A stretch of DNA of 64,000 nt from Antedon mediterranea. Lineage: Eukaryota; Animalia; Echinodermata. Position numbers and translations under genes: made by a program. The notes below the pieces were generated by a model. The model had not been told where the DNA came from and searched no databases. It was given only the letters and a program-made list of their open reading frames with translations. Below, piece by piece: positions 1-57,059 of this stretch (positions are counted from its first letter, which is position 1; every line of letters begins with the position of its first letter). The DNA is taken from positions 5,580,001 to 5,644,000 of the forward strand of contig NC_092680.1 of the NCBI RefSeq assembly GCF_964355755.1, in the 5' to 3' direction.

Positions 1-188
1 GAAAAATGCACGTTTAGATGTTTCTACAAGCAAAACGGATACAATATAATCACAATAAATAACACTTGATAAATAAAATGTGGGAAAATGTTACAAATAT
101 TTTACTACTAAGAAAACTGCGGCTAGAGGAATATTCTTGTAGCCGGTTACGACTTCGTACTGCTACAGTACTACACTCTTTATTGAAA

Positions 189-2075
189 ATGGAAAGATAT
201 TGCTGGTGTGGGAAAATTAGATACTTGTTGCTTTGTATTCTCATACAATCTTGTTGCTTTTCTTTTGGATTCAGTAAAATTATAATACATCCAGCAGAAC
301 AGCATGTTTTTGTCGGAGAAAATGCGATAGTTGAATGCAATAATCATCACGACGAGAAACAGTTTTGGAAATGGTATAGCGTGACCGAAAACAATCTCAA
401 CGCCAAATTAATATGGAATGAACGTTCGAATGTTATTAAACAAAGTAGGTTTAACTTTGAAGTTTATGAGCAAAGGAAAAGTAGTTCCAGTAGACTGACG
501 ATAATGGGTGTTACAGTTGCTGACCAGGCTAAATACATCTGTTCACATGGAACTTTTTTAGCAATTGCTAACATTTCAGTGACCATTGGTAAACGATTGG
601 ACTCCAATTATCCAGAGTGCAAAACACACTTCTCAGAAGTCAACACAGAGAAAAAAGTACAGATGAATTGCACTGCAAATGGCGGCGAACCAAGACCAAC
701 ATTAAAATGGTACAGAAACGGTGAAAAATTAAAAGAATTTGATAAATTTCTTCTTTCTAATGGGACTTGCACGAATAATGTTGAATATTTATTGACACCT
801 AATGACGAAGGGGCTGTGTTCACATGTAGAGCAGAAGGCGTGGCAGCAGATGACAATCATAGTTGTTCCATTTCTTTAGAAACTCTTCCAACGGTCACCA
901 TTATTGCAACTGAAACATCCTTCACTGTTGGTAACTCAATGGGGTTCACATGTATGGTAATGAGCCCGTGGACCGTCACAAGCTACAGGTGGACGTTTGA
1001 TAATCAGATGGTGCAGTTATCAAATCCAGAATTTAGACATGATATTAATAATAGTATGTTAGTTAAATTGAATTTACAAGAAGACGATGAAGCTAAAGAA
1101 ATTGAATGCATTGCGATGACGGCCTCTGGGTTAAATGCTAGCGATTCTGTGCAAATTTCACTTGCACATAAAAGTCGCAAAATTGTTTTAAAAGCGGTTG
1201 CAGGAATAGTAACTCTGTTATGGGCGTGTATTATCATATTGGTTATAATAAAGAGAAATCCAATTAAATCATTAGTTACTAATTGTAATGTATCTACAAG
1301 GGATAGGCATACTGTTATAAATGATGTATCATCACCGTCCAAAACAAGCAGCAACTCTATACATAACGATATAAAATCGCAATCAGAAGAGTCAAATAGT
1401 TTTCCTATTAGAAGAAATATTGAACAAGAAAGTGTTTCATTCGATACTAATGCTGACTCTTTCGACACTTATGGAAGTATTAGTAATTTACAAGATTTGG
1501 ATTCACAGGAACGCGAACATGTTTGTAACAAGCAAACCGTTACAGGAAGTGACGATGTTCTTGACTCTCACGATACGTATGTATCGATGTTAGCCCGACC
1601 TCATAAACCACATAGAAGAACTTATTTCGTTGATTTAAATTCAAAACCAATAAAAGAAACCCACGGAACACCATCAGTTAGTAAGTTAGTCCATTCTAGA
1701 ACTATATATGCAAAACCACTGAATATGACGCAACACCGACGTTCACGATCGTCTGGGACACTGGCCGATTTTAGATATCTTTATGCAAAACCAAATAAAA
1801 AAACTAAACGACACGATAAACCACACTTGTATAGAATACATGGTTATAAAGCTATCTATGCAACGCCTACTATACGTCCCAAATCAATACATCAATCACT
1901 CGAAGATATTTCAAAAGTAACTAAAAATGACTCGTATAAAAACCGGTTGGGATCAGTTGATAATTTGTACGCCCAGCTTAACAGTAATTCCTTAGGAATG
2001 AATTCAGGAATGTATACAGGTTCTGATAAAGGCTTAAATGCACATGATGCAATGTTTCTTTTCTCCAGAATGTGA
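189..2075 (+). CDS. IgSF receptor 1 (divergent member): signal peptide, 3 Ig domains, TM, long Tyr-rich tail (TIYAKP, YLYAKP, AIYATP, NLYAQL)
   Basis: Uninterrupted ORF 66..2075. The first ATG followed by a hydrophobic leader (MERYCWCGKIRYLLLCILIQSCC) is at 189. Ig motifs: VEC..WKW..LTI..D.A.YIC; C.ANGGEPRPTLKWYRNG..FTCRAEG; FTC..SPW..YRW..IEC. TM: IVLKAVAGIVTLLWACIIILVII. Confidence 0.85.
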   Translation: MERYCWCGKIRYLLLCILIQSCCFSFGFSKIIIHPAEQHVFVGENAIVECNNHHDEKQFWKWYSVTENNLNAKLIWNERSNVIKQSRFNFEVYEQRKSSSSRLTIMGVTVADQAKYICSHGTFLAIANISVTIGKRLDSNYPECKTHFSEVNTEKKVQMNCTANGGEPRPTLKWYRNGEKLKEFDKFLLSNGTCTNNVEYLLTPNDEGAVFTCRAEGVAADDNHSCSISLETLPTVTIIATETSFTVGNSMGFTCMVMSPWTVTSYRWTFDNQMVQLSNPEFRHDINNSMLVKLNLQEDDEAKEIECIAMTASGLNASDSVQISLAHKSRKIVLKAVAGIVTLLWACIIILVIIKRNPIKSLVTNCNVSTRDRHTVINDVSSPSKTSSNSIHNDIKSQSEESNSFPIRRNIEQESVSFDTNADSFDTYGSISNLQDLDSQEREHVCNKQTVTGSDDVLDSHDTYVSMLARPHKPHRRTYFVDLNSKPIKETHGTPSVSKLVHSRTIYAKPLNMTQHRRSRSSGTLADFRYLYAKPNKKTKRHDKPHLYRIHGYKAIYATPTIRPKSIHQSLEDISKVTKNDSYKNRLGSVDNLYAQLNSNSLGMNSGMYTGSDKGLNAHDAMFLFSRM

Positions 2076-2734: not shown

Positions 2735-4198
2735 ATGATGGTGTTCACTGGACGTTGCATGTTTATTTTTATTTGCAACATATTGTTCAATTATTGTTTA
2801 ATTCCTGCTGCTGCTGTAACAATACAACCGTTGAAAATAGATGTATTTGCTGGAGAAAATGCTGTATTTGAGTGCAATACTGATACACTAAGTTCTACAT
2901 CCAAATGGATTTGGCTTAAAGGTGCTGCTGATTTAATAGCCAAGGAAGATGTGTTTGTAAGCAATGGATATGAAGTATTGATCAGCAAAAATAGAACAAC
3001 TAGCGTATTGACAATACTTAATACTACCATTGAGGATGAAAGTATATATCATTGTCAACTTAGCTCATCATCGCCAAAAGCCACTCTAACAGTTTTGGAG
3101 GGAGTGAAATTAAACTCACTTTATCCACAGTGTGAATCGGACACCTCGTTACTAAACACAGAAACAACAGTCCAAATAAAATGTTTTGCAGAAGGAGGCA
3201 AACAAAGACCAGAATTACAATGGTACAGAAACGGAATCAAGCTAACAGAACAGACCGATCTCTTCGATGGTAAGTCTTCATACTTTGACGAGTTAACACG
3301 TGTACTGACTATCGATGACGAAGATGCTGTTTTTATGTGTAAAGCAGAAGGACCAGCTGCCGATGAGAATCAGTCATGCCAGCTACAGTTAACGGTTCCC
3401 CCAGACGTTCATATAATCTCTAACGGAACAACTTTTACCTCTGGAGGATCTCTGTTTTTGACTTGTATAACAGTAAGTCCTTGGAAAATAACAGACTATA
3501 TTTGGAAAATTGATAACGAGTTATTAATTTCGAGTAAATTAATGTATTCCATAGAGAACAATGGGAGAAACATTGCAATATTTGATCTCAATCAGAATTA
3601 TAATATCGTAATTGGTTGTGACGTAACCACGTCTTCTGGATTGGTTGGTAACGATACTATTGAGCTAAAGTATGAAGATAAAACGTCTAATGATCACAAT
3701 TATTTAATCCTAATTGTGTGTCTTTCAATTAGTATGTGTTTTGTTGGATTATTGATTGGTAGTTTGGTTAAATTCAGAAAATTGTTTAAATCGTTTAAAT
3801 GTTTTTGTATCATTAATGATAAATGTAATCAGAAACAAAGTATAGTCACATCATGCCCCAAAACAACTAGGTCATCTGATCAGACAATTTCTGGTGAAAT
3901 AGTGTATTCAGGGTTAACTACGTCATCTGATCAGACAATTTCTGGTGAAATAGTGTATTCAGGGTTAAATACGTCATCTGCTCAGACAATTTCTGGTGAA
4001 ATAGTGTATTCAGGGTTAAATACGTCATCTGATCAGACAATTTCTGGTGAAATAGTGTATTCAGGGTTAAATACGTCATCTGATCAGACAATTTCTGGTG
4101 AAATGGTGCATTCAGGGTTAGTTCCAACAACTTCCTCAATATACACCGAACTAAACCAAACAAATGTGAATGAATCACCATACGAATCATTAACTTGA
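2735..4198 (+). CDS. IgSF receptor 2: 3 Ig domains, TM, tail with tandem ITIM-like IVYSGL x4 plus SIYTEL and SPYESL
   Basis: ORF 2687..4198; the family-typical start MMVFTG is at 2735. Same Ig motifs as the paralogs. TM: YLILIVCLSISMCFVGLLIGSLV. The tail contains a 17-aa repeat. Confidence 0.9.
   Translation: MMVFTGRCMFIFICNILFNYCLIPAAAVTIQPLKIDVFAGENAVFECNTDTLSSTSKWIWLKGAADLIAKEDVFVSNGYEVLISKNRTTSVLTILNTTIEDESIYHCQLSSSSPKATLTVLEGVKLNSLYPQCESDTSLLNTETTVQIKCFAEGGKQRPELQWYRNGIKLTEQTDLFDGKSSYFDELTRVLTIDDEDAVFMCKAEGPAADENQSCQLQLTVPPDVHIISNGTTFTSGGSLFLTCITVSPWKITDYIWKIDNELLISSKLMYSIENNGRNIAIFDLNQNYNIVIGCDVTTSSGLVGNDTIELKYEDKTSNDHNYLILIVCLSISMCFVGLLIGSLVKFRKLFKSFKCFCIINDKCNQKQSIVTSCPKTTRSSDQTISGEIVYSGLTTSSDQTISGEIVYSGLNTSSAQTISGEIVYSGLNTSSDQTISGEIVYSGLNTSSDQTISGEMVHSGLVPTTSSIYTELNQTNVNESPYESLT
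3872..4120 (+). repeat. Coding minisatellite, 51-bp unit x ~5 (SSDQTISGEIVYSGL[T/N]T)
   Basis: Near-perfect repeats of tcatctgatcagacaatttctggtgaaatagtgtattcagggttaa(c/a)tacg start at 3872, 3923, 3974, 4025 and 4076. The last copy reads MVHSGL. Confidence 0.95.
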
Positions 4199-5548: not shown

Positions 5549-6813
5549 ATGATGTTCACCGGCCGTTTAATTTGGTTTATATTTCCTGTTGTGTGTAACT
5601 ATTGGTTACTGTCTGAAGCTGGTATCACTATACAACCAATGAATCTTGAAGTATTTGCTGGTGAAAATGCTGTATTTGAGTGCAGTGTTGATACAATAAG
5701 CTCTTCATCCAAGTGGCAATGGTTTAAGGGTGATGATGGCATAATATACAAGGAAGATGTGTTTGTAACATTTGGATATGAAGTAATGATAAGCAACGGC
5801 AGAACAACCAGTTCATTGACAATACTGAATACTACTACTATTGATGATGATGGAGACTCTTATCATTGTATGTTTGGTTCAGTATCACCATTCGCTAGCT
5901 TAGCAGTTATTGAAGGAATGAGGCTAGACTCTATGTATCCGCAGTGTGAAGCTGAAACCTCGTTACTGAACACAGAAACAACAGTCCAAATAACATGTAT
6001 TGCAGAAGGAGGTAAACCAAGACCAGAATTACAATGGTACAGAAACCGAATCAAGCTAACAGAACAGTTTGATCTCTTCGATGGTAAGTCTTCATACTTT
6101 GACGAGTTTTAACACGTGTACTGACCATCGATGACGAAGAGGCAGTGTTTATGTGTAAAGCAGAAGGTCCAACTGCAGATGAGAATCAGTTATGTCAGGT
6201 ACAGTTAAGAGTTCCCCCAGACGTTCACATATTCTCTAATTCAACAGCTTATAAATCAGGAGATCTAGAATTGACTTGTAAAACAATGAGTCCATGGAAA
6301 ATAACGGATTATATTTGAACGATTAATAACGAGTTATTAATTTTTAGTGAATTAAAGTATATCTTAAAGAACGATGGGAGAAACATAGAAATATTTGACG
6401 TCAATCATAATTGTAATATCTTCATTCGTTGTGACGTAACCACGTCTTCTGGATTGGTTGGTAACGATACTATTGAGGTAAAGTATGAAGATAAAACATC
6501 TAATGATTCAAATGACTTACCTATAAGCTTAATTGTGTGTCTTTCATTTTGTATGTTTTTTCTTGGATTGTGTATTGGTATTTTAGTTAAATTCAGCAAA
6601 GTTTTAAAATCAATCAGATCGATTCTCATGAATAAAACTAAATCTGATCAAAATGGATCTGAGAATCACGATACGAGCACTGCTGAACCTTGTTACCAGA
6701 ATACAATTATAGAAAATGATCAGACAATATCTGGTGAAATGACGTATTCAGGGTTAGTTCCAACAACTCCTTCAATATATAGAGAACTAAATCAAATAAA
6801 GGTTAATGAATAA
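5549..6813 (+). pseudogene. IgSF receptor 3 pseudogene (ITAM-type tail)
   Basis: Frameshift at ~6108-6111 (gacgagttttaacacg vs gacgagttaacacg in paralogs) plus TGG>TGA at 6316-6318. The remainder aligns almost exactly with receptor 4. There are two independent lesions. Confidence 0.9.
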
Positions 6814-8396: not shown

Positions 8397-8664
8397 GGAG
8401 TGGAGCTGTGGCTTGGTGGTTATGATGCTTGGCTACCAATCTAAGGGTCCTGGGTTCAAGTCCTGTCATATGTCAGGGTTTTTTCTCATGACAATTTACA
8501 ACTCCACTCCCAAAGACTTAATAATAAGTCTTTGTTTATGTAGAGCATCTTGTGTATTTGTTTGTCTTGTGAAATTTTAAATAGTTTATCCATCCTGTAA
8601 TTGGCGGGTTACTCGCTGTTGGATGAGTATGAAATAAATAAAATAAAATAAAAATAAAAATAAA
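8397..8664 (+). mobile_element. tRNA-derived SINE inserted just upstream of the receptor 4 start codon
   Basis: Pol III A box-like tggcttggtgg, B box ggttcaagtcc and an (AAAAT)n tail. It interrupts the tatgttttgat...atgatgttc leader seen contiguous in the paralogs. Confidence 0.8.
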
Positions 8665-8669
8665 ATGTC

Positions 8670-9941
8670 ATGATGTTCACTGGCCTTTGTAACGTTATAT
8701 TTGTTTGGTCTATATGTTCTATTGTGTGTAACAACTTATTAGTTTCTGAAGCTGTTACAACAATACAACCATTGACACTTGAAGTATTCGCTGGAGAAAA
8801 TGCTGTATTTGAATGTAACGTTGACACACTTGAACCAATATTCCCTTGGCAATGGTTTAAAGGTAGAGATGTTAGAATAGCACTGGAAGATATGTTTGTA
8901 AAAAATGGATATAGTGTTAGTATCAGTAACAATAGGAGAACCAATGCGTTAACAATATTCAACACTACGCTCAGTCATGGCCAAAGTCAGTATGCTTGTC
9001 AATATGGTTCTGTATCATCATTCGTTAATCTGACAGTATTTGAGATAATGAAGTTAGACTCAACGTATCCAAAGTGTGAGGCAAACATAACGTTGATAAA
9101 CACTTTGAAAACAGTCCAACTAAAATGTAGAGAAAAAGGTAGCAATCCAAGACCAGAATTACAATGGTACAGAAACGGAATCAAGCTAACAGAACGGGTT
9201 GATCTCTTCGATGGTAGTTCTTCTTACTTTGACGAGTTAACACGTGTACTGAATATCGATGACGAAGAGGCAGTGTTTATGTGTAAAGCAGAAGGTCCAG
9301 CTGCAGATGAGAATCAGTTATGTCAGGTACAGTTAAGAGTTCCCCCAGACGTTCACATATTCTCTAATGCAACAGCTTATAAATTCGGAGATCTAGAATT
9401 GACTTGTAAAACAATGAGTCCATGGAAAATAACGGATTATATTTGGACGATTAATAACGAGTTATTAATTTTTAGTGAATTAAAGTATATCTTAAAGAAC
9501 GATGGGAGAAACATAGAAATATTTGACGTCAATCATAATTGTAATATCTTCATTCGTTGTGACGTAACCACGTCTTCTGGATTGGTTGGTAACGATACTA
9601 TTGAGGTAAAGTATGAAGATAAAACATCTAATGATTCAAATGACTTACCTATAAGCTTAATTGTGTTTCTTTCATTTTGTATGTTTTTTCTTGGATTGTT
9701 TATTGGTATTTTAGTTAAATTCAGCAAAGTTTTAAAATCAATCAGATCGATTTTCATGAATAAAACTAAATCTGATCAAAATGGATCTGAGAATCAAGAT
9801 ACGAGCACTGCTGAACCTTCTTACCAGAATACAATCATAGAAAATGATCGGACAATATCTGGTGAAATGACGTATTCAGGGCTAGTCCCAACAACTCCCT
9901 CAATATACACAGAAGTAAATCAAATAAAGGTTAATGAATAA
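8670..9941 (+). CDS. IgSF receptor 4: 3 Ig domains, TM, short tail with ITAM-like E-x7-E-x2-YSGL-x7-YTEV
   Basis: Intact 423-aa ORF with leader MMFTGLC..., the Ig motifs and TM LPISLIVFLSFCMFFLGLFIGILV. Confidence 0.9.
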   Translation: MMFTGLCNVIFVWSICSIVCNNLLVSEAVTTIQPLTLEVFAGENAVFECNVDTLEPIFPWQWFKGRDVRIALEDMFVKNGYSVSISNNRRTNALTIFNTTLSHGQSQYACQYGSVSSFVNLTVFEIMKLDSTYPKCEANITLINTLKTVQLKCREKGSNPRPELQWYRNGIKLTERVDLFDGSSSYFDELTRVLNIDDEEAVFMCKAEGPAADENQLCQVQLRVPPDVHIFSNATAYKFGDLELTCKTMSPWKITDYIWTINNELLIFSELKYILKNDGRNIEIFDVNHNCNIFIRCDVTTSSGLVGNDTIEVKYEDKTSNDSNDLPISLIVFLSFCMFFLGLFIGILVKFSKVLKSIRSIFMNKTKSDQNGSENQDTSTAEPSYQNTIIENDRTISGEMTYSGLVPTTPSIYTEVNQIKVNE

Positions 9942-10799
9942 TAGTCATCATACATCAGATTCTGTCTAAACATGTTCTATTCTGTCTGAATTACTATAAG
10001 GCATTTAAGGTATGCATGATAGTTGTCTATCGAATGGTAACAACTGATTTACATTGATAGTCTGTTTCTTTACGTACTTTATTGCAGTACCTGGTGTAAC
10101 TATTCTACTTTGCTTTGTGCTTTATATTAAAAAGAACGTTTAGTCTGCAAATATAATGTAAAACCGTTTGATATATAGATTTAGGGTTTTTTATGCATGT
10201 ATTTATGAAAGAATATGTTATTATATTTTATGATACAAATGACAAAATATATAATAGTCGTATATTGTTGGCTTAATAATTGAAGTTTATTAATAATATA
10301 TTCGTTCAATATGTTATTGGTTTTAAATATATATCTGTAGTAGGCACAATGATGAGTCCTAAAATAATTATGTTGTTACACCTATGTTATGTAAATAAAT
10401 ATTCTATTAAATATTAAAGTGTGTTGTAATAATTGTACAGTCAGCAAGGAATATATGATGACTTACCAGACTATATGATAGTAAATATCAACCTTTTACA
10501 GTGAGTCTAATTGTTCTATAGAATGATAACTGTAGGCCCTGATGATAATAGTGATAATGAAGAAAATGCTGATGATTCTAAATAAAATTACGGTTGTGAC
10601 ATTAAGGATTATAATAAAGAAAAGATGACAATAAATAGGAAAAATAATAATAGAGGTTGCACTCTGATAAGGCCAATTTAATTTGGAATTAATGATGATG
10701 ATTAATATGATTACGGCCAGCATGCAAAACAACAGAGCAAACATGTTTGGTTTTCTCAAATATGAGACATTGCTGTGGGTATAGTAACACTTACACACA

Positions 10800-13050: not shown

Positions 13051-13866
13051 ATGATGCTCACCAGGCGTAAGGTATTTGTTTGGTTTATATTTCCTGTTGT
13101 GTGTAACTACTGCTTAGTTTCTGAAGCTGTTACTACAATACAACTAATGAATCTTGAAGTATTTGCTGGTGAAAATGCTGTATTTGAGTGCAATGGTGAT
13201 ACAATAAGCTCTTCATCCAAGTGGCAATGGTTTAAGGGTGGTGGTATAATAATATACAATGAAGGTGAGTTTGTAGTAAATGGATATGAAATAATGATAA
13301 GCAACAGTAGTAGTAGTATCGGTTGTTCTACTGTTGCTTATCATTACTTCATATCCATTTACTACAAATATATTCACAATATTGAATACTACCATTGAAG
13401 ATGGAAGTGTGTATCATTGCCAACTTGGTTCAGCATCACCAGAAGCCACTTTAACAGTTTTGGGAGTGAAATTAAACTCACTGTATCCGCAGTGTGAAGC
13501 TGACACCTCATTACTGAACACAAACAAAACTGCACAAATAATGTGTAGCGCAAAAGGAGGTTACCCCAGACCAGAATTACAATGGTACAGCAACGGAGTC
13601 AAAGTATCGGAAAATGAAGATTTTTTTTTAATTTTGCTATTGGCATATTGGTTAAATTTAGCAAACTGTTAACACCATTCACATCTTTTTGCATGAATAA
13701 TACTGATTCTGATCAAAATAGTGGAAATCAAGAAATGCGCACTGCTGGACCTTGTTATCAGAATACAATCATAGAAAATGATCAGACAGTATCTGGAGAA
13801 ATGACGTATTCAGGGCTAGTTCCAACAACTCCCTCAATATACACAGAACTAAATAAAATAAAGTAA
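13051..13866 (+). pseudogene. IgSF receptor 5 pseudogene (ITAM-type tail); inverted duplication in the V domain and a large internal deletion
   Basis: Starts MMLTRR..., is broken by a fold-back insertion at 13270-13368 and resumes in another frame. It then jumps at ~13620 from mid-Ig2 directly to the end of the TM. The tail ENDQTVSGEMTYSGLVPTTPSIYTEL is retained. Confidence 0.9.
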
Positions 13867-15091
13867 ATGAATAATAGTCATACATTAGACTCTTTTTCTG
13901 AAGATGTTATATGTCTGGATCACTATGAATTCAATCTATGCATTTTGTACATGGTAATCACTGATTTACGTTGGTAGTCCGTTTCTTTGTGTATATTATT
14001 GTACCATATTAAATGATAGTGCGTGTACGTTTAAAAGGTATCTAACAATGTGGTGGAATGGTTATACATTCATTCGAAATGGATTCTGAAACAAAACATA
14101 TAGTTTAGCAATAATATTCGAAAAGTTGGCTAATCTTCTTCCAAACTATGTTTGGTTTTGTATATGCTAGTATAATAATCTAATTATTATGGTAATTATA
14201 CTTCTCCAAAATGGTATTGGTTATAAAAGATATATGTAATAAAAACAGAATACTATATAAAATTATTGTGACTCGAATTACTTACTTTATATTGTAAACT
14301 GATTTATAAGAATAAATATTACACTATTATCATTCACATGTGCTGTAATAACTGAACAAATATGATTGGACAGGGTACAAGGATCATACAAATTGCCATG
14401 ATTTTAAAGTTGCATCCATTAGAAATTATGAATAAGTTATAGTTATTAGACGACCTAACTAGGTCAGGTCAATCGGTGTGTCGTCGGTCATCGCTTAGAC
14501 CTAGAACCATCAAACCTATGTCGAGGAAACACTCCCAGCGCACAGTGAATTGAAATTACTTTGGTCGCATGTCTTGCTTTTGAAATAATGCATATTGCGT
14601 GCCTGGCAAACTGACTAATCGAAAGATTAAATTATGAGAGAAAACACACAAACTTCATTAACTTTAATTCCGTAGCTATCATATTTTTTTCTGTATATAA
14701 ATAACCTAATACTGTAATACAAACACATTTTGTAAACTCTTCTTATTGTTCATGAACACTATGTTGCGTTGCATGAGAAATGGGGAAAACCTATGACCAT
14801 TAAATTACAGGGCGTGTATCATATGTGCTACTCATAGAAAATGTATCATTCATCATAAATATTATCTACAAAAGTACAGCAAATTATTGTTATAACAGTA
14901 ATTACTAGGTACACTAAAGAAAATGTACTTTCTAACAATGGAGTAGTATAAATATCACTAGTGCATAACGATTTGATGACATAAACGAGATTTAAAGTAC
15001 AGTCTCAGAGTGAATGACGACGTATAACGTGACGAACCTGTTGCTCTGCTATTTTAAGAGAAAACAGACCAAAAGTATATTAAATTCTGCA

Positions 15092-16419
15092 ATGGTGTTC
15101 ATCGGTTGTTTTAAGCTTTTCTTTGGTCTATATGTCTTATTTCGTCAAACTACTGTTTAACCTCTGAAGCTTTTACCATAATTGAACCACTGAATCTTAC
15201 TGTACTTGCTGGGGAAACCGCTGTATTTCAGTGTAACACTGATCGGGTAGACCAGGCTCTTTGGCAATGGTTTAAAAATCGAAATAAACCAATAGCTGTG
15301 GAAAATGGATATGTATCAGATGAATACATTATGTCGGTTAGTGGAAGAACAAGTGAGTTGATGAAACATAATACTACTACTGAGGATGATCAAAGTCAGT
15401 ATCATTGCCAGTATATTTCTTCCTCGTTATACGCTAATCAAACGGTTATCGAGAAGTTGGACGTTATGTATCCATTATGTGAAACGACTATAACGTCCAT
15501 AAACAGTGATAAAACTGTCTCAATATCATGTAGTGCAAAAGGAGGCAACCCAAGACCAGAATTACAATGGTACAGAAACGGAGTCAAACTATCAAAAAAT
15601 AGCGGTAAGTCCACATACTACGACGTGTTAAAACGTTTATTGACTTATGAAGATGAACAAGCAGTGTTTGTGTGTAAAGCTGAGGGATTGGCTGTTGACG
15701 GAAAACAAACATGTAGTGTGAACTTAAATGTTCGTCCAGAAGTCATAATAACTTACACAACAATTTCTTTCGAGGTTGGAGATTCTCTAGAATTTAAATG
15801 TAGAGTAATGACTCCGTGGAAGATCATAGATTACGTTTGGAAAACCAATAACACGTTGGTGACTACGTCAGGCTATAGTTTTATTCTAACAGATGACAAG
15901 ACAGTGCTCATAATTAATAATTTAAAATCGAGTGACACAGACGTAGAAATAAAATGTCAAGTGACAACGGCATCAGGTCTAACCGGTAGTGATTCAGTAA
16001 CAATTTCACTAAGTGACCGTGAATCAGATTGGTTATTTGTTGTTTTATTTGCTGGAGGAATCATCTTTATGTTTATTTTTATATCAGTATGTCAGAAAAA
16101 ACAAGAGAAAGCATCAGTCGCCACAATACTTGAAACACTTCAAACGCCCAATCAATCAAACGCTGACATACAAAACATTGTTTCCCAAGAAAATCCTACC
16201 TTAACATATGACCAAACAGATGATGAACGTGGGTCATCATTAGTTGCCATCATTAATAGTAGCAGTGAAGAATCGTCAGAAGCCGAAACTGAACGTGTAA
16301 CACAAAGTCCAACGCCTTCGAACGAATCTACAGGGAATCAGACGTCCGACGTTGATGAAGACAGTAGCATTGGCAGCTTTTGTAGTTTCTATAGTTTTGA
16401 TGACGAAGATACCGAATAA
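15092..16419 (+). pseudogene. IgSF receptor 6: intact from 15115 onward but with a 1-nt frameshift in the signal peptide (pseudogene, null allele or assembly indel); short acidic tail
   Basis: The ATG at 15092 (MVFIGCFKLF) is out of frame with WSICLISSNYCLTSEA...; the main frame has a TAA at 15112. The indel lies in the T-rich cttttcttt run. Three Ig domains and TM WLFVVLFAGGIIFMFIFISV follow. Confidence 0.65.
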
Positions 16420-17157
16420 TTTCCTAACAAGAAAATCATTTTGATGCTGTACAATTAGACATCATGATATATTATATAATGTGTTTGATTAGTTATTCAA
16501 TGTATCTATTCTTTTCAACTACTAATATTTTAGTGGTAATTTCCACACACAAATGTGTAGTTTAATAATCAATATCTTTACAGTAAATCATTATTCATAA
16601 AGTATAATCAAAACGATAATTATACTAGGCCTACTTTTAGATAATGATGACTATAGAAACTGTAATGTATATTTTATAGTTAGTTTATTGATATTTTAAA
16701 CCGTATTTGTTAAAAAGAATTGTAATTATTATTATTATAATGTTACTGAAAGTTTCAAACGAATTTAAGTGGGTCGCCCCCACGAAAAAGAAAAAAAAAG
16801 ATAACAACTTGGCAATGATTAATTACATTAGGCCTAAATTAAAAATATGAAATATCAATTTTAGTTTAAAGCGTAGTATCTTGAAATATAAAAATCATAC
16901 TATTTATATGAAATCATGTTATTCGTTTACACATCGTAATTAAAAATATATTATATGGGGTTACAACTGAGAAATATTGATATCGGTTCCATTTTTACCA
17001 TATAGGCCTATTTAGTTTAATGTAGACTGTTATTCAATTCAATTGAATTGCATTCTCTGGCTCATAGAAAATAAACTAAATGAACAACATTTAAAAGTGT
17101 GAGTACAATATATCAGAATACCATTCTATCTGGAGAGCATCTTTGATTCATATGATG

Positions 17158-17825
17158 GTAGGGTGCCTCAATGGGAAAAATGACAAGAATCGTTACACGA
17201 ATGACAAAGTTTTCAAATGTTGCATATATGTTCACTAGGGCATATTATAGACTCGAAAAATACTGTAGCAAAAAAAAAAGTTGTTGGCTACGACCATATA
17301 TGAGGCATTTTCAAAATGACGGCCAAAACTAAAATATGGTCTATATCTCGTTCATTTTAGTGTCAAAATGCTCAGAACATAATATATTTCTATTCGTAAT
17401 AATACCTTTTTTGTCAGGAAATGGCCGGAATCACAATTTCCGTAATTGTGACCTTTGACCCTAGTGTGCTCATATCTTGATAACTACTTGTTGTAGAGAC
17501 ATGCGATTGGGCTTAACTTGTTACCGACATATATGTTAAAATGTTGTCCTAAAGTGACTGGAAACCACGGTATTGACCCTTGATAGTCTCAAATTTCGGT
17601 AACTGATGGGCATAAAATCGTAATATTGAGCTTAAATTATGCAAGACGTATACTATTTATATTTGAATATAATGACTAAATGTGTTTGTAATTTGGTCTA
17701 ATTAACTGTTTGTAGCCAAACAATTTTTTTTTTGGCTATAGTGATTTTTCGAGTCTATAAGCCCTAGTGAACATATATGCAAACTTTGTCATCCGTGTAA
17801 CGATTCTGACTCAAAGACACCCTAC
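17158..17825. mobile_element. Non-autonomous DNA transposon (MITE) with long terminal inverted repeats (~115-135 bp)
   Basis: gtagggtg...gaatcgttacacgaatgacaaagtt...gcatatatgttcactagggc...tatagactcgaaaaat is mirrored by atttttcgagtctata.gccctagtgaacatatatgc.aactttgtcatccgtgtaacgattc...caccctac. Confidence 0.85.
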
Positions 17826-18414
17826 TAAATATATTGTCTAATATATTTTCACGTGTATTAGATCTACACATCAGGCCATGTATCGTTTTTCTTTTAAAAT
17901 TATAAAAATAATTATACACTCTGTAAACATGAAGATGACACAATGTCGAGGCTTTTACATCAATATTCTTAAATCATCACTATACTGTATACCGAGATCA
18001 CAAGACCCTAGATTATAGTATGTAGTAGGCTATAACACATTATTTAAGTTATGACCACATGAAATTGTAGTGTGCATTGGCATGGGAGAAGCTAGTAATC
18101 AGAGAACTATCTCCACTCTCCCCCTCTCTGTTCTTTCCCCTCTCCTATCCAAATTACATTTACAACTCTCTTGATCAGGAAGTTAACAAAATAAATGGTC
18201 TCTTACTAGTATTTCTAACAAAATGACTACACACAAAGATCACAAAAGAACCCGGATACTCGTACGGTAAGTTTAAGCATCGGAGCATAACGACTTTATA
18301 ACAAGTGTATATACGATGTTACAGCACTACACCAAATGGTTGACTGATTGCGTTGACTTTTTGGTTGCACGTTGGAGTAGGACTGGATATATGTTTTGAT
18401 GATACTAAGATGTT

Positions 18415-20469
18415 ATGATGTTCACTCTTTGGTCTATATTTTCTGCTCTGTATCTGTACTCATTAGTTTCTGAAGCTGTTACCACTATAAAACCATTGAA
18501 TCTTGAAGTATTTGCTGGCAAAAATGCTGCATTTCAATGTAACACTGATCAGAATGGGACAGCTTTATGGCAATGGTTTAAAAATCGCAGAAATCCAGTA
18601 GCCACAGAAAATGGATATGTATCAGAAGGATACAGTATGACTGTTAGTATAGGAACAAGTGAGTTGACAAAATATAATACTACTATTGAGGATGACCAAA
18701 CTCAGTATCACTGCCAGTATATTTCGTCTTCGTTATACGCTTATCTAACGGTTATCACGAGGTTAGACGCTATTTACCCGTTGTGTGAAACAAATACAAC
18801 GTCAGTAAACAGTGATAAAACTGTATCAATATCATGTAGTGCACAAAGAGGTAACACAAGACCGGAATTACAATGGTACAGAAACGGAGTTAAACTAACA
18901 GAACGAGTTGATTTCTTTAATGGTAAGTTATTCATTGACGAGTTAATACGTGCACTGACTTATGACGATGAAGGAGCAGTGTTCTTGTGTAAAGCCGAGG
19001 GTTCAGCAGTCGGAGAAAACCAATCATGTCAGGTAAAGTTGAATACTCGCCCAGACGTCATCATAACTTATGCAAACAAATCTTTTACCGCTGGAGATTC
19101 TCTAGAATTTACTTGTACAGCAATGAGTCCATGGAAGATCATTTCTTACGTTTGGACAATAAACAATGAGTTGGTAACTGCGTCAGGGCACAGCTTCAGT
19201 CTAAAAGATAACATGACAACGCTAGTTGTTAGTGATTTACAATCTAGTGACGATGACGCAGAAATAAAATGTGAAGCAATGACAAAATCTGGTCTTACCA
19301 GTACTGATTCAGTCACAATTTTATTTAACGACATTCCAATAACCACTGACAGTGAATCTGTTTTTCCAATTTTCATTTTATATATTGGAGGAGTCCTGCT
19401 CTTGATATTAATATCCATCGTAATTGTAATATTAGTAAAACGTAGGAAAAAACAAGGGAAAACATCCATAACCAAAACAGAACGTGTAAGATTTCAAAAT
19501 TCAACTCATTCAAAAGATGGAATAGTGAACATTATTTCTCTAGATAATCCCACCTTCACATATGATCCAGAATCTGTTAACGAGATTAACGAAGATTTTA
19601 ATAATCCTCATGTCGTGAAGATTAGACTTAATGATTATGATATTGGTGATAACGGTACTGATGAATTTAGGTCATACGAAGAACAAGGTTTTGAAACTTA
19701 CGCAAATGCAGAATCCGCTGCAAGCATTGGAAGCTTTTGCAGTTTTAACAGTTTTGATCAAGATGATGGAGATTTTCGTCCTGTTTATGATGATGTTGGA
19801 AGCCAACCTAGTATAGATATTGGTCTTGATATGCAAGAAAGTCAGATGAACAGGCACACTAATACATTAGTAGAAACAATTAGTGTTGATGATTTATACG
19901 CAAAACCAATAAAGAAGAGACGGGTAAAAGGTGACACCAGATCTCTTGATGGAATCGATAATGTTGAAGAACAATACGCAAAACCGATTAAGAAGAATAA
20001 AAGTAACCTACTACATCGGCAATCAATACACCAATCTCTTGAAAACGTACTAAGACCAAATATAAAAAATGACACGTTTTATAGCACAGTAGAGTCATTT
20101 GATGATCTATATGCTAAGCCTAATAAAACTCGTGTAACTGGACAGCCTAAAGAGTTCAAATCTAAACAGAGCTTAAAGCCGAAACTCCCGCCAAAACCTA
20201 CGCATATTGATGGGCGTTCTACCATTCGTAAAAAGTTAGACCCTGAAGCGAGCGACAAACCGAAACCTCCTACCAAACCTAGCCCTATCAATGGGCGCTC
20301 TTCGGTTCGTGAAGACTCCGACCAAAAGCAACGTACCAAACCAAAACTTCCTCCAAAACCTAGGTCAACTAATAGTGATCATAAAACACTGTCAAATGTA
20401 CCATCTGGCAACCAGCTCATGCTAACTTCATTACCCTCAATGGATTTTACATATTCGAGTATTGCATAG
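18415..20469 (+). CDS. IgSF receptor 7: 3 Ig domains, TM, long tail with DDLYAKP-type motifs, KPKLPPKP proline-rich motifs and C-terminal DFTYSSIA
   Basis: Intact 684-aa ORF with leader, Ig motifs, TM IFILYIGGVLLLILISIVIVILV and basic stop-transfer KRRKK. Confidence 0.92.
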   Translation: MMFTLWSIFSALYLYSLVSEAVTTIKPLNLEVFAGKNAAFQCNTDQNGTALWQWFKNRRNPVATENGYVSEGYSMTVSIGTSELTKYNTTIEDDQTQYHCQYISSSLYAYLTVITRLDAIYPLCETNTTSVNSDKTVSISCSAQRGNTRPELQWYRNGVKLTERVDFFNGKLFIDELIRALTYDDEGAVFLCKAEGSAVGENQSCQVKLNTRPDVIITYANKSFTAGDSLEFTCTAMSPWKIISYVWTINNELVTASGHSFSLKDNMTTLVVSDLQSSDDDAEIKCEAMTKSGLTSTDSVTILFNDIPITTDSESVFPIFILYIGGVLLLILISIVIVILVKRRKKQGKTSITKTERVRFQNSTHSKDGIVNIISLDNPTFTYDPESVNEINEDFNNPHVVKIRLNDYDIGDNGTDEFRSYEEQGFETYANAESAASIGSFCSFNSFDQDDGDFRPVYDDVGSQPSIDIGLDMQESQMNRHTNTLVETISVDDLYAKPIKKRRVKGDTRSLDGIDNVEEQYAKPIKKNKSNLLHRQSIHQSLENVLRPNIKNDTFYSTVESFDDLYAKPNKTRVTGQPKEFKSKQSLKPKLPPKPTHIDGRSTIRKKLDPEASDKPKPPTKPSPINGRSSVREDSDQKQRTKPKLPPKPRSTNSDHKTLSNVPSGNQLMLTSLPSMDFTYSSIA

Positions 20470-22631: not shown

Positions 22632-24527
22632 ATGATGTTCACTGACGGTTGTAAGTTTACATTTGTATCATCTATATTTCTTGTTTTGTTTAACTACTGT
22701 TTAATTTCTGACGCTGTTGTCACTATACAACCATTGAATATTGAGGTATTTGCTGGTGAAAATGCTGTATTTGAGTGCAATACTGTTATAGGCCTACTGA
22801 GTTCTACATCCAAGTGGCAATGGTTTATTGGTACTGATGGGCACTTGATAGCTAATGAAGACGCATTTGTAACAGATGGATATGACGTAATGATAAGCGG
22901 CAATAGGACAACCAGTATATTGACAATATTAAATACTACAATCATTAGGAACAATGGAAGAGTGTATTCTTGTCTATTTGGTTCATCATCACCACAAGCC
23001 ACTCTGACAGTTATCGATGGAATGAGGTTAGACTCAATGTATCCCCAGTGTGATTCAGACATGACGTCAATAAACACCGAGAAAACAGCACAACTAACAT
23101 GTAGTGCAAAAGGAGGGGATCCTAAACCAGAACTGCAATGGTACAGAAACGGAGTCAATTTATCGGAGAATCAAGATTTTGAAAGTTATGATTCTTCATC
23201 ATCATACTTTGAACAGTTAACACTTGTATTGACTATCGATGACGAAGATACAGTGTTTATGTGTAAAGCAGAAGGTCTAGCTGCTGACGAGAATCAGGCA
23301 TGTCAAGTTCAGTTAAGAGTTCCTCCGGACGTAGAGGTAATGTCTAACAAAACATATTTTACTTCTGGAGAGTCTCTAGAATTTACTTGTATAGCAATGA
23401 CTCCATGGAAAATTATGGAATATATTTGGACTATCAATGACGAGATAATGTCTACCTCAAAATATACCTTTATTCTAACAAATAACATGACAACGCTCGT
23501 CATTGATGATTTTGACGCTGATGCAGAAGTAAAATGTGAAGTGATAACAGCAACTGGTTTAACAGGTAGCGATTCGGTCACAATTACATTTTTAACTGTA
23601 AATGATGAATCAAATTGGTTACTTTTAGCGATAATATTGGTTGGAGGAGCAATGTTATTGTTACTTGTATTCATTATTGTTTTCATATTTGCAAAACGTC
23701 GTCAAAAACAAGGTAAAACATCGATAACCAAAACAGAACGAGCAACATTTCGAAATGACATGACAGATGGAATTGTACACATAGTACCGGTGCCTTTAGA
23801 TAATCCGAACTTTATCGACGAGAGAGATTATGAGGTTGATATTGATAATCCAAATGTGTTGAGGATTAATTTTGAAGATAATATGGAAGGTTATAACATG
23901 GATGATAATCATATGGATGATGACTATATGAATGATGATCATATCGATGGTAGTTCGGATATAAATGATGGCGGTAGATCATACGAAGAGAAGCCTGGTT
24001 TTGAAACTTACGCAAATGCAGAATCAGTTGCCAGTCTTGGAAGCTTTTGCAGTTTCAACAGTTTTGATCACGTTGATAACCGTCATAGTAGATATGTTGG
24101 CCATATGATCGACACTGGATCTCAAGATAGATTGACTGAGTTTGACGATCTATACGCAAAACCAAACCAGAGTAGGCAAAGTAAAGTGGACACAAAATCA
24201 GTTGATGGAATAGATAGGCCTAATGTTGAAGAACTGTATACAAAACCGAATAAAAAGTACAGGCAATCAATACACCAATCTCTTGAAGACATTTTAAAAC
24301 CAAGCACCGATAATAACAGAGCAGAATCATTTGATGATCTATACGCTAAGCCTAATAAAAAGCGTGCAACTGGACAGCCTATACTTTTTAACGAGTTATA
24401 CACTAAACATGACTTCAAACCCAAGCCACCACCAAAACCTAGGCCGATTAAGATTTCAGTATGTGATGATCAGATGAGTTCGTCAAACGTAATTGAACAT
24501 GATTTTACATATTCAAGTATTGCATAA
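22632..24527 (+). CDS. IgSF receptor 8: V domain of the receptor 2/3/5 type with a receptor-7-type YAKP/PxxP tail
   Basis: ORF 22587..24527; the family start MMFTDG is at 22632. Ig motifs present; TM WLLLAIILVGGAMLLLLVFIIVFIFA. Tail: ETYANAES, DDLYAKP x2, KPKPPPKP, DFTYSSIA. Confidence 0.92.
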   Translation: MMFTDGCKFTFVSSIFLVLFNYCLISDAVVTIQPLNIEVFAGENAVFECNTVIGLLSSTSKWQWFIGTDGHLIANEDAFVTDGYDVMISGNRTTSILTILNTTIIRNNGRVYSCLFGSSSPQATLTVIDGMRLDSMYPQCDSDMTSINTEKTAQLTCSAKGGDPKPELQWYRNGVNLSENQDFESYDSSSSYFEQLTLVLTIDDEDTVFMCKAEGLAADENQACQVQLRVPPDVEVMSNKTYFTSGESLEFTCIAMTPWKIMEYIWTINDEIMSTSKYTFILTNNMTTLVIDDFDADAEVKCEVITATGLTGSDSVTITFLTVNDESNWLLLAIILVGGAMLLLLVFIIVFIFAKRRQKQGKTSITKTERATFRNDMTDGIVHIVPVPLDNPNFIDERDYEVDIDNPNVLRINFEDNMEGYNMDDNHMDDDYMNDDHIDGSSDINDGGRSYEEKPGFETYANAESVASLGSFCSFNSFDHVDNRHSRYVGHMIDTGSQDRLTEFDDLYAKPNQSRQSKVDTKSVDGIDRPNVEELYTKPNKKYRQSIHQSLEDILKPSTDNNRAESFDDLYAKPNKKRATGQPILFNELYTKHDFKPKPPPKPRPIKISVCDDQMSSSNVIEHDFTYSSIA

Positions 24528-34200: not shown

Positions 34201-37200
34201 CCTTTCGTGTAAATTAATTATATAATAATTACTATTTCTATACACATTAGTTGTATAATACAAAGAATTTAAAATAATTTACGTAATTATTTAGTCTCCA
34301 ACTTAGTTGAAAATTATATCTAATTTGTAGAAAAATAAGAAAGATGATGCGGAAACGTCGTAATTGTTATATTTATGAACCTTAATCGCATAATTGTGGA
34401 AAAAATTGTTTTATTTAGTGTCATTAAAGTCACTGTATGCTAAATGTCCTGAGAAAATTATGAGTAAAGTGGATTTAATCTTGAGAAAGTTACCAGACAT
34501 GGAAGATGCAAAGAAAACATACGTTTACCTATTATTGGATGATATTTCAAAAACTTCCCCCCAGGTAAGAAATAACCTCATACGACAAACAAAAAATTAA
34601 TAATAAAAACAAGTTTAACAATTCATAATAAAAATAAATTGTTATAATTGTTATTTATTAAAATAATATAATATATATTAATTTTTTTTTCTTTCAATAA
34701 AGAAAATAGATCGAATAATTATTAGCCTACGAATGAATTTTTTTCTAACTTCCATATTCTAGTAAGAAAGTCTAGTAGAAAAACAACTATCCAAATTTAT
34801 TTTTTTATACAGACACTTGCACCACACATTGAAACCTTAATGGAGGACATTGATGAGCCGGGTATTCAACACCACTTACTTATGGTTCTTGGCGAAATTT
34901 CTGCAAAATACCCAGAGAAATTTGTAAATCACGTTGAAAGTCTTACCAGGGTATTACAATCACAGCCAGTGGTATTGTATCACGTAGATAAAATTATTGC
35001 AAGTGTTGGAACCATTAATAAGGTAGGAATAATTGTCAGAAGTTAAACTCTAAATTCTTATTGCTATTCACTCATTCAACAGAAGACAATATCTGCTTAA
35101 TTACATCGTAATACAGATTTTAGACAAATATAATAAATTAAATAAATTGATTTATATAGACCTACTATTATAACAAATTTTTCTAGGAATGGGCAATCAA
35201 AATCCTAAATATTTTAGCTGATCAACTTCAGACAGTACAAGCATTATATCAGTCAATTGTTTTATTGGAGATGAAAAGGATAGGGCAAAAGTTTCCTGAA
35301 TGTTTAACAACCCACAGAGCTAAGATAGAGGCGATGAAGAACAGCCCGCAGATGGGGATAGGAGACCTGGTGATTTCACTAATAGATTTTATGGAAGGAA
35401 GAAGGTAAGTTATTGGAGAAAGACGTAAATTAAAAGACTGTGGGCGGCTAGCTGGCATAAAATATTACTAATTTATAGAGAAAATAGTACAGACTATCTA
35501 TATTGTATTCTGTAGTAACTCTTCTGAAAATATCACTAAACGTTGAAGATACAAGCACAAATACAATAATCTTATCTTTCTTGGTAAATTAGCTGTACAC
35601 AAAATACTGTATTTTCTATAGTCTAGGGGTTTTACACGAGGAAATTATAGACCAGCGAGAGGACATCGAAGTCCTAGACACACGGGTGACAGCCACGGAA
35701 AGTAATGTTGCAGAAGTTACAGAGAATGTTGAGGAACAAGGAATGGACATAACGGCGGTGAAAACAGACGTCGCAGAACAAGGAAAAGCGTTGGAAGAGT
35801 TAGAAGATGTTGTTGATGAAACCGTTGTAAAGGTTGATGAGATAGACCATAAGGTAAAGTAGTTTTGTAATTACTCGGTAGTAACGTATACTTTTTATTT
35901 TGGTTCATACTGCTACTCTGTATTGTTTTTAGACGATTACGAATGCCCCTAAATGGTCTCGTGATGTTTCAAAACTGCTAAATCCAGAAGCTGATTATGA
36001 TTGGAGATTTTTGGCGATACGTCTCGGCTATTCGGTCGAAGACATTCGGAACTGGGTGTTGTCACCCGACCCGACTATGGCAATTCTAGCCGAATGGTAC
36101 ACGACTCATAAAAGTAGCGATGCAACATATGCAATACTGACGGCGTTAGAAGATATGGGACAAACAGAGGCTGTAAAGATAGTTGAAGAATCTTTAGAAC
36201 AAGCAGGTAGGCCTAATCAAGAACACACACATAACAAATGTGATGTGACCGATACTATTTTAACGTTATCTAATTTGTTACTTACCATTAGTACACTTTA
36301 TAATGAAAATATTCAACAATAATATCCCTAATTTAGATTTTTATTGAAATCGATAGATGCAATGGTTCCGAAATTAGGACCAGAAATATCAGAGAAACCA
36401 CCAAAAGTATTCATTAGTTACCAATGGGATCATCAACCTGAAGTGAAGGCTGTAAGAGATCATCTCGAGATGGCAGGGTTTGCTTGCTGGATGGACATTG
36501 GTCAGATGGGAGGTGGAGATAACTTATATGCAAAGATCAATGAAGGAATGAGAGCTGCTAAAGTTGTTCTGTGTATGACAACTGAGAAGTATTCGAAATC
36601 AGAAAACTGCAACAAAGAGGTAAAAAGAAATTTACTGGGCTATACATCTACGACGCTTTTCAACAAATCTATATTATATAAATTTACGTAAGGGCAAAAT
36701 TCGGTAAATCGCGCCTTACTTCTAGAAAAGTTGGTTCGTACTTTCGGTACTGATTTTAACCGCCTGATGTAACCCTGTTTACTAATTAAATTGAGTTAGA
36801 TAATTAGTTATTGACGATTAAAACGAATTTAGGTTCAACGATTTGCCCCAAATAGGGGTGTTTTCCGATCGTGGTATACACTGTCTAATGGATGTCCATC
36901 TTGAAAAATACCCGCCAAAAAAATGCGAGGAGGCTTCGCATTTTTCTATCTCCTCCTACGATAATTGTTTTTAATAGCTGAAAACCGGTTGAACAGCTAG
37001 AGTACACCATCATAATGTTGAAGACAGGCCGATTTTCTTTAAAAAATACTATTTTGATAGATTTAATATACGATTATACAAATGTATTGATTTGCGATGA
37101 ATGGAACATCCCAATCTCTCAGTCTGCCAGAGTTTGGTTTAACACAAGTACTGTAGGTAAATTTATGAGCCCTTGGTTTAACACATACGGTAGGTAAATA

Positions 37201-52476: not shown

Positions 52477-53071
52477 TAATAATAATTATTATTATATTCA
52501 AATACATTTATTGTGTACTAGTGTGTTATAGCAATCATGTGGTTTATTTGAATTTAAACTAACTAAATTTAGTTGAATTTAATGAACGTAATAGCGTAAA
52601 GAAAATTACACGAAAGACTATTAATTATTTCTTTTTTTCTAACTTTTGAAAACGTTTCGTTTCGTTCGTTTCGTTCAATGTTTGTTTTAAAAAAAACACA
52701 AAAAAACAATGCAGTAACAGTAAGCTTAGTTTGCTATATGTATGTATCCCAATAAATAAATTAATATGAGATGTTCTTGAGAGCGATTTCTATCTATTAT
52801 AATATCTACCTAACATTGATTATTACATCACCATGGCAATACTAGGCAATATTATTGTTTGTAGTATAATTAATTGGTTTATTGTATTGTTGATGATGCG
52901 GTTCACTGATTTCTAGCCAGCAGTACGCCTACTGTGGCAGTATGGTGGAAATAAGAAGAAATAAGCAGCAAGTACTTAGGTTGATACTGAGCAATAGCTA
53001 AGGTAATTATGATAATTAGTGCTTAAGAACGTGAGAAGACTACTATAGTAATACTTAACTACTGTATAACC

Positions 53072-56000: not shown

Positions 56001-57059
56001 TATAGAATAAAAATGTTATCTGCACTAAATAAGCCAGTGGGTAAATCTTTATGGAATTCATTTAAAAGCAATATGTTATATAACATTGAATGTGAAACAT
56101 ATAACAATAAAGAAACAAGTATAGAAAAATGGGTAGCTTTAAGAAATAAGATTATGATAATATAATTTCCAATTTTTATACGATTAACTGAAAAAGAATT
56201 ACAGTGATACGGGTTACTGGTGGTACTGAGCTATTATTGTTTTTTTTTTTATCATGTATATAAATATATTGTATAATCCGGGTTGTAAAATGAAAACAAA
56301 CAAATGAAAATGTGTGAACTATTTTAAAACGGGATAGATGATAATGATGATCCTGTCAAGTGTATAACAAAATATAAGAAAATTAATGAAAAAAGGAGTA
56401 ATACAGAATTCATATATGTAAAAATGTTACTTATGAACTGTAACGACATTTACAAGTTAAATAATACGATTTTATGTAATATGAGATAATATGAATGTGA
56501 ATAAAAGTGGTGTTTGCGCCACAAAAGAGAAAAAAAAAATTTACTATTTATAGAATAAAAATGTTATCTGCACTAAATAAGCCAGTGGGTAAATCTTTAT
56601 GGAATTCATTTAAAAGCAATATGTTATATAACATTGAATGTGAAACATATAACAATAAAGAAACAAGTATAGAAAAATGGATAGCTTTAAGAAATAAGAT
56701 TATGATAATATAATTTCTAATTTGATACGATTAACCGAAAAAGAATTACAGTGATACGGGTTACTGGTGGTACTGAGCTATTATTGTTTTTTTATCATGT
56801 ATATAAATATATTGTATAATCCGGGTTGTAAAATGAAAACAAACAAATGAAAATGTGTGAACTATTTTAAAACGGGATAGATGATAACGATGATCCTGTC
56901 AAGTGTATAACAAAATATAAGAAAATTAATGAAAAAAGGAGTAATACAGAATTCATATATGTAAAAATGTTACAAGTTAAATAATACGATTTTATGTAAT
57001 ATGAGATAATATGAATGTGAATAAAAGTGGTGTTTGCGCCACAAAAGAGAAAAAAAAAA
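53072..57059 (+). mobile_element. 5'-truncated Tx1/L1-clade LINE with duplicated 3' end, poly(A) and TSD
   Basis: Begins at the end of the endonuclease domain (TDH..GPGLWIFNNSFL). TSD ctactgtataacc is at 53059-53071 and 57060-57072. Poly(A) tracts are at 56530-56539 and 57050-57059. Confidence 0.93.
53129..56165 (+). pseudogene. LINE ORF2 remnant (reverse transcriptase plus C-terminal zinc knuckle), one frameshift
   Basis: KTPGSDG, NWRPITLLNTDYKI, DFKKAFDS, GIRQGCPLS, QLADDT, ILGI. Frameshift in the A-run at 55321-55331. CDKCGEIENENHLFFSC is a CCHC motif. Confidence 0.92.

Follow-up and report, generated by a model that had tools for sequence, protein, structure and literature searches.

Finding an ITAM on a receptor of the Ig superfamily is no surprise in itself, since such receptors have been described in oyster, in Hydractinia and in amphioxus. 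The oyster receptor CgIgR is an invertebrate single-pass Ig receptor with an ITAM in its own tail, which is reported to co-precipitate and recruit CgSyk and to promote phagocytosis (PMC6994640). The Alr genes of the invertebrate Hydractinia encode IgSF proteins with an ITAM or an ITIM in the tail; they lie in clusters shaped by duplication and shuffling, in a genome for which Syk, Shark and SHP homologs are reported (10.1101/2022.03.04.482883). In vertebrates, CEACAM1/CEACAM3 and the Xenopus ceacam proteins are single-chain receptors with an intrinsic ITAM or ITIM, and the accounts of these paired receptors also mention ligand-binding domains equalised by recombination, a YxN site beside the ITAM, and gene birth and death (PMC2832619, PMC5112662). 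In Botryllus, related FcoR receptors or alleles are described as flipping between hemITAM and ITIM through small changes (PMC12582321). No description of an ITAM receptor in echinoderms or crinoids was found in the literature, searched by titles and beginnings of abstracts of mostly non-subscription papers.

The present analysis concerns a stretch of 64,000 nucleotides from the crinoid Antedon mediterranea (hereafter, the window), in which eight receptors lie head-to-tail between positions 63 and 24527. Their organisation recalls that of the systems above and differs from each of them. CgIgR, whose function was tested whereas only sequence is considered here, has five Ig domains instead of three and is not known to swap cassettes (PMC6994640). 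The Alr genes are given as spliced and multi-exon, with an Fn3-like fold and a role in allorecognition (10.1101/2022.03.04.482883), whereas each Antedon receptor has one continuous ORF and three Ig domains, with a crossover within D3. CEACAM conversions are described as recent and exon-bounded, whereas here the shared ectodomains are 55-74% identical, so that a common ligand is not assured, and the partners have LYAKP (YxxP) repeats; the likeness to CEACAM is one of organisation. Finally, the Botryllus switch is reported to involve a point change and splicing (PMC12582321), compared to the amplification of a 51-bp half-motif and a Tyr>His change here. What this locus adds is a concrete, testable ITAM candidate in a crinoid and sequence evidence that, much as in the paired receptors of vertebrates, different ectodomain lineages have traded a signalling cassette.

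The receptor array and its ITAM-like motif

All members of the array (Table 1) have a single reading frame each, encoding a signal peptide, three Ig domains, a transmembrane segment that is uncharged or nearly so, and a tyrosine-bearing tail. Their closest named relatives come from the crinoids Anneissia japonica and Antedon mediterranea and are annotated merely as adhesion-molecule-like or uncharacterised. The exact sequences of R7 and R8 are present in the protein collection; those of R1, R2 and R4 (two starts each) are absent, which is at most a weak hint against the ITAM reading. In R4, an uncharged transmembrane segment (residues 328-348) precedes a 75-aa tail that is predicted to be disordered and that contains a YQN site at Tyr385 in addition to the ITAM-like motif. 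An AlphaFold model of R4 built on a 32-row alignment has a mean pLDDT of 78.9, with residues 362-423 below 50. The best matches of its ectodomain (Foldseek, phmmer) are SIRP, CD155/nectin-like proteins, SYG-2 and NCAM2. SIRP alpha/gamma and the CD155/nectin-like proteins have a similar three-Ig ectodomain, and the likeness to all these proteins, at 15-20% identity and TM-scores of 0.24-0.37, is that of a common fold, not orthology.

Most tails of the family carry (D/E)LY(A/S/T)KP repeats, in both Antedon and Anneissia (R1, R7, R8, P0005, P0007, P0012, P0160 and P0161), with two or three LYAKP-type repeats in those of R7, R8, P0007 and P0012. YxxP sites suit the SH2 domains of Crk, Abl or RasGAP. 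A C-terminal (F/V)(T/I)YSSIA is common to R7, R8, P0160 and P0161, and the tail of R8 also includes a 15-bp tandem repeat (23873-23949) encoding an acidic, Asp-rich stretch.

Table 1. Features of the Antedon receptor array (positions in the window)
Feature	Position	Strand	Description
R1	63..2075	+	three-Ig receptor, YxxP-type tail, without ITAM
R2	2735..4198	+	ORF 487 aa; same tail lineage as R4; six ITIM-consensus tyrosines
51-bp tandem repeat x4.9	3871..4120	+	in R2; first motif half amplified, four IVYSGL units
R3	5549..6813	+	broken; chimera
R3 motif copy	6712..6789	+	full consensus match; downstream of frameshift and stop
SINE-like insert, 267 nt	8398..8664	+	between family 5' flank and R4 start; very high depth bin
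R4	8670..9941	+	ORF 423 aa; three Ig domains after a signal peptide
Approximate recombination breakpoint	9444..9464	+	D3 tryptophan, about residue 260; R8-like upstream, ITAM cassette common to P0009 downstream
R4 ITAM-like motif	9840..9917	+	E-x7-E-x2-YSGL-x7-YTEV; Tyr402, Tyr413; second tyrosine also fits ITIM consensus
R5	13051..13863	+	broken
R5 motif copy	13774..13851	+	full consensus match; reading frame does not reach motif
R6	15092..16419	+	without ITAM; start codon not in frame with main ORF
R7 (P0004)	18415..20469	+	intact; LYAKP-repeat tail
R8 (P0002)	22632..24527	+	intact; LYAKP-repeat tail; D1-D2 ectodomain closest to R2/R3/R4

The motif reads ENDRTISGEMTYSGLVPTTPSIYTEV in R4, ENDQTISGEMTYSGLVPTTPSIYREL in R3 and ENDQTVSGEMTYSGLVPTTPSIYTEL in R5, exactly as in the original prediction, and our scan bore out that R3 and R5 match the full long ITAM consensus (D/E-x7-D/E-x2-YxxL/I-x6-8-YxxL/I) throughout and that R4 misses only its last residue (Val). 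By the core YxxL/I-x6-8-YxxL/I, R3, R5 and P0009, an intact paralog from outside the window, qualify as ITAMs by sequence, and R4, with its terminal Val, not strictly so. A Glu three residues before the first tyrosine (-3) is found alike in R2, R3, R4, R5 and P0009. The acidic residue at -11 is Glu in R3-R5 and Ser in R2 and P0009; since it is not conserved, the match of R3 and R5 "at every position", although real, is partly incidental.

A six-frame scan of the window revealed three matches to the full consensus. Two are those of R3 and R5, and the third, at 42191, is on the minus strand and lies in none of the listed ORFs of at least 100 aa. The bare core is matched 28 times across the window and is therefore common in raw DNA. 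When the R3 tail is shuffled 200,000 times, the full motif arises at a frequency of 4.5e-5, and the shuffles give a chance of about 7e-4 that it occurs in at least one of the six other tails of the window (0.054 for the core only). The full motif thus occurs in receptor tails beyond chance. Even with an E-value limit of 10, the Pfam ITAM model, which was built on vertebrate chains, matched none of the seven tail pieces.

It should be emphasized that R3, R4 and R5 are recent, near-identical duplicates, with 91-94% identity of their motif DNA; they therefore amount to one event and give no independent support, and counting them as three conserved instances was rejected. Between R4 and R5, the motif DNA is 94% identical, versus 81% and 76% in its flanks, and between R2 and R4 82%, versus 55% and 60%. 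The core of R3 and R4 is less alike (39/45) than its surroundings (97%), and three of the seven changed codons are non-synonymous.

An intact paralog and the mosaic ancestry of the tails

P0009 is a named, intact Antedon protein that is not encoded in the window and was found among the representatives at 50% identity. It aligns along the whole of R4 (182 of 429 residues identical, 42%), and its motif, ETDYSELTPTTPSIYSEL, keeps E-x-x-YxxL-x7-YxxL, thereby meeting the definition D/ExxYxxL/I-x6-8-YxxL/I used for ceacam receptors (PMC5112662). Between P0009 and R4, 11 of 15 residues are identical in the core, versus 16 of 59 in the remaining tail (Fisher p=0.002 for a 15-residue core picked after seeing the alignment), and both proteins have tail tyrosines at 385, 402 and 413. 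The seven-residue spacing and the acidic -3 are constant in the five sequences (R2-R5 and P0009). The Leu at the last position is also present in R2 and intact P0009, so that the Val of R4 is the odd one; Leu is likely ancestral and Val derived.

Among 32 membrane proteins of 250-900 aa (159 proteins fetched), P0009 is the sole carrier of the strict core. A search for homologs of the tail only gave two candidates, none of which scored, and it missed P0009, which shows that it was insensitive; an atlas search with the transmembrane segment and tail of P0009 gave a best feature score of 0.84, below the bar. In R4 and P0009, the motif lies in the disordered tail of an intact-frame protein, after the transmembrane segment, whereas the frames of R3 and R5 stop earlier. 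If any of these receptors has a functional ITAM, P0009 is the strongest candidate.

The comparison of receptors along their length revealed that their identities flip at the D3 tryptophan, around residue 260. Before this point, P0009 resembles P0007 and P0012 (50-82% identity), whereas the nearest gene without the cassette is, for most of the length, R8 in the case of R2 and R4; after it, P0009 and R2/R4 are mutually closest. At the DNA level, the similarity of R2, R3 or R4 to R7 or R8 stops at the same point. Trees of these short regions (15 rows, LG+G4) agree with this pattern: the N-terminal part groups P0009 with P0007/P0012 (100/100) and R2/R3/R4 with R8 (88/83), and a clade uniting the four proteins with the cassette is rejected (AU p=3e-48). 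The 100 residues that follow give a tree, obtained with a long-branch warning, in which these four group together (99/99), and both N-terminal groupings are rejected (p=3e-4 and 2e-4). R5 (too broken), P0006 (isoform), P0014 (partial) and P0022, P0160 and P0161 (near kept rows) were left out. Judging from these trees, a cassette made of the second half of D3, the transmembrane segment and the tail has recombined onto two ectodomain lineages. Other members of both lineages bear LYAKP tails, and either the cassette moved onto new heads or neighbouring genes may have converted the heads. The AU tests also support similar ectodomains with different tails in the two lineages (R2/R3/R4 with R8, and P0009 with P0007/P0012), and R2 and R4, which are 62-63% identical, have an ITIM-rich and an ITAM-like tail, respectively.

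Signalling by the tail and competing readings

The motif is probably a true, conserved ITAM, carried by a recombined cassette of this paired-receptor-like three-Ig family. This ITAM reading, which was that of the original prediction, gains most from the conservation of D/E-x2-YxxL-x7-YxxL in an intact paralog at 42% identity, the one independent homolog that backs it, and it loses some ground with the Pfam result and the fit of the second tyrosine to the ITIM consensus. According to it, a ligand would cluster the receptor, a Src-family kinase would phosphorylate both tyrosines of the motif, Syk (or Shark) would dock on the phosphorylated motif through its tandem SH2 domains, and the cell would be activated or the bound particle taken up. 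The upstream tyrosine (YQN in R3-R5) might add a Grb2-type site. Since the receptor bears its own motif and has a transmembrane segment devoid of charged residues, an adaptor would not be needed. Sea urchin SYK accessions are given in a report that also describes amphioxus SYK as inhibitory on NF-kB (PMC13344425), so that binding of Syk need not mean activation. A wider proposal is that a paired immune-receptor system arose separately in crinoids from single-ORF three-Ig genes in which a mobile ITAM cassette is joined inside D3 to the current head, with LYAKP-tailed counterparts and a half-ITAM whose fourfold copying can turn an activating tail into an inhibitory one; we consider it possible but tentative. 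If it is true, echinoderms would have an ITAM/ITIM paired-receptor family in which the switch is caught mid-change.

In the tail of R2, the first half of the motif has been amplified; in the fifth repeat unit, a His replaces the first ITAM tyrosine and is followed by SIYTEL and SPYESL. R2 was likely rebuilt into an inhibitory, multi-ITIM form, whose sign is not certain: its tail ends in YxxL-x9-YxxL, which fits the broader definition of an ITAM that was applied to Hydractinia (10.1101/2022.03.04.482883). P0009 (perfect), R4 (Leu>Val) and R2 (Tyr>His and ITIM repeats) make up a natural series of tails for the choice between Syk and SHP. A literature search on the tolerance of Syk for Val at pY+3 found nothing usable.

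The ITIM consensus applied here, (I/L/V/S)xYxx(L/V/I), is matched by the second motif tyrosine, SIY(T/R/S)E(L/V), in R2-R5 and P0009, and the tail could therefore be inhibitory or switch-like, with S-I-Y-x-E-L/V acting as an ITIM that recruits SHP or SHIP and the ITAM spacing incidental, or with an ITAMi of which one tyrosine is phosphorylated. The Val of R4 spoils the ITAM yet keeps the ITIM, Anneissia P0022 ends in SIYSDV, and few changes were needed to amplify ITIM-consensus units in R2. In addition, ITAMs are reported to recruit SHP-1 on low-avidity ligation (PMC6481281), and DNGR-1 to be switched to SHIP1 by one flanking residue (PMC12669754). However, 16-17% of shuffled tails contain an ITIM consensus, which makes a match to it weak evidence, and the first motif tyrosine of R3-R5 and P0009 fails it: the -2 position is M, T or M, with no conserved aliphatic residue, while the acidic -3 is retained. 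The exact x7 spacing and both Leu are also retained at 42% identity. Among the relatives from starfish and sea urchin, P0062, P0076 and P0111 bear two or three ITIM-consensus sites, but the tandem ITIMs of echinoderms lie about 24-38 residues apart and not 11. For these reasons, an inhibitory or switch-like tail appears unlikely as the general explanation.

These starfish or sea urchin proteins belong to a set of distant three-Ig relatives (P0062, P0076, P0111, P0090 and P0136; three are so named) that end in tandem LxYAxL-type ITIM-consensus sites, which suggests that an older inhibitory branch exists in echinoderms.

The conservation of the spacer PTTPSI counts against the ITAM reading, since an ITAM does not require a conserved spacer sequence. 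Residues kept letter for letter would fit a reading in which PTTP is the site of a regulating kinase and the YxxL/V sites serve in endocytosis or sorting, or dock single-SH2 adaptors, on an adhesion or scavenging receptor with no Syk step. YxxL/V does double as an endocytic signal, a possibility that the authors of a CEACAM study leave open for the ITAM-like motifs of their receptors (PMC2832619); moreover, the sister receptors carry LYAKP repeats and not immune motifs, and the ectodomain matches are generic (SYG-2, NCAM2, SIRP, nectin-like). A sorting signal, however, needs neither a pair at ITAM spacing nor an acidic -3, and cassette swapping, tandem duplication and pseudogenisation suit receptor families of the immune type, so that this explanation seems quite improbable for the family. 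Least of all do we favour a motif without function, a remnant or chance match that gene conversion and duplication within the array have multiplied: the three copies of the window are near-identical and all broken or altered, and the strict core was found in none of nine tail-bearing Anneissia homologs (two of them isoforms), but intact P0009 conserves the motif far above the rest of its tail and the shuffle probability is below 1e-3, so that P0009 largely refutes this view for the family; for R3 and R5 alone, the remnant reading is correct.

Lesions and neighbouring features

Whatever the function of the ITAM candidate in P0009, the three ITAM copies of the window appear to be decaying, R3 and R5 by broken frames and R4 by its Leu>Val change and an insert in its leader. 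The two lesions of R3 and the Val codon of R4 are read from the assembled sequence of the window alone. In R3, a 2-nt insertion near 6107 leads to a stop at 6110 and a TGA follows at 6316; a rescue by splicing was rejected, as the sole acceptor-like site found (6220) precedes the stop at 6316. The 5' part of R3 is 60-77% identical to R4 and its 3' half 93-100%, a contrast that marks it as a chimera. R5 has a 49-nt inverted insertion (13311-13359), a stop at 13396 and, after 13614, a deletion of 483 nt that removed half of D2, D3 and part of the transmembrane segment. The deletion junction is covered by read contigs, of which X1 and X2 (one sample, possibly the source) show no difference and X5 (another study) shows one. 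Because of these upstream stops, the motifs of R3 and R5 are not translated from a start of the annotated type, and the pseudogene status proposed for both genes is confirmed by frameshift, stops, insertion and deletion.

The insert located upstream of R4 ends 5 nt before the start codon. It includes A-box-like and B-box-like words, seven ATG and, in its (AAAAT)n tail, six AATAAA, and we infer from the A-box/B-box consensus that it is a tRNA-derived SINE. The only Rfam match of this insert (E 0.38) was dismissed as chance, and nothing significant was found. The distance from the family 5' flank word to the ATG is 284 nt in R4, compared to 25-30 nt in R3, R5 and R7. R4 is therefore likely impaired by this insert, presumably through its expression.

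Among the other five receptors, only R6, which has no ITAM, is broken, by a frameshift in the signal peptide (15092-15115). Broken frames thus affect two of the three ITAM copies versus one of the five others, and since these copies are few and related, selective loss is not demonstrated. The original prediction that the perfect ITAMs are the pseudogenes holds inside the window, but intact P0009 has a perfect core, which is therefore not restricted to pseudogenes. Its proposal of a fast turnover of activating members is backed by the mosaic trees as regards turnover and paired-receptor-like shuffling, both of which the sequences support, but not as regards a selective loss of perfect ITAMs. 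The pseudogene pattern was rejected as proof of such a loss, given the near-identity of the duplicates, the Leu of R2 and P0009, the insert of R4 and the frameshift of R6.

The collection model of R6 (P0010) begins at an internal Met and lacks the signal peptide. Over the start of R6, the X5 contig has four gaps, and the allele may differ there. Another X5 contig, over 9866-10385, was set aside as evidence of expression, because X5 is RNA only by conjecture. The X1 contigs have a depth of about 28-34 over R5-R7 (13331-19069), compared to about 46 elsewhere, which may reflect haplotypes that differ within the array. The word GCATAAC is common to the upstream regions of R4-R8, 129-425 nt 5' of the start (around 8245, 12820, 14963, 18285 and 22346), and is a possible promoter element.

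About 10 kb from the array lie two tandem copies of a spliced gene (34726-40079 and 46551-50559) that encode a Death domain upstream of two TIR_2 domains, a neighbour of the innate-immune type. Further along the window (53027-56165), a non-LTR retrotransposon encodes RVT_1 and zf-RVT domains in two overlapping frames.
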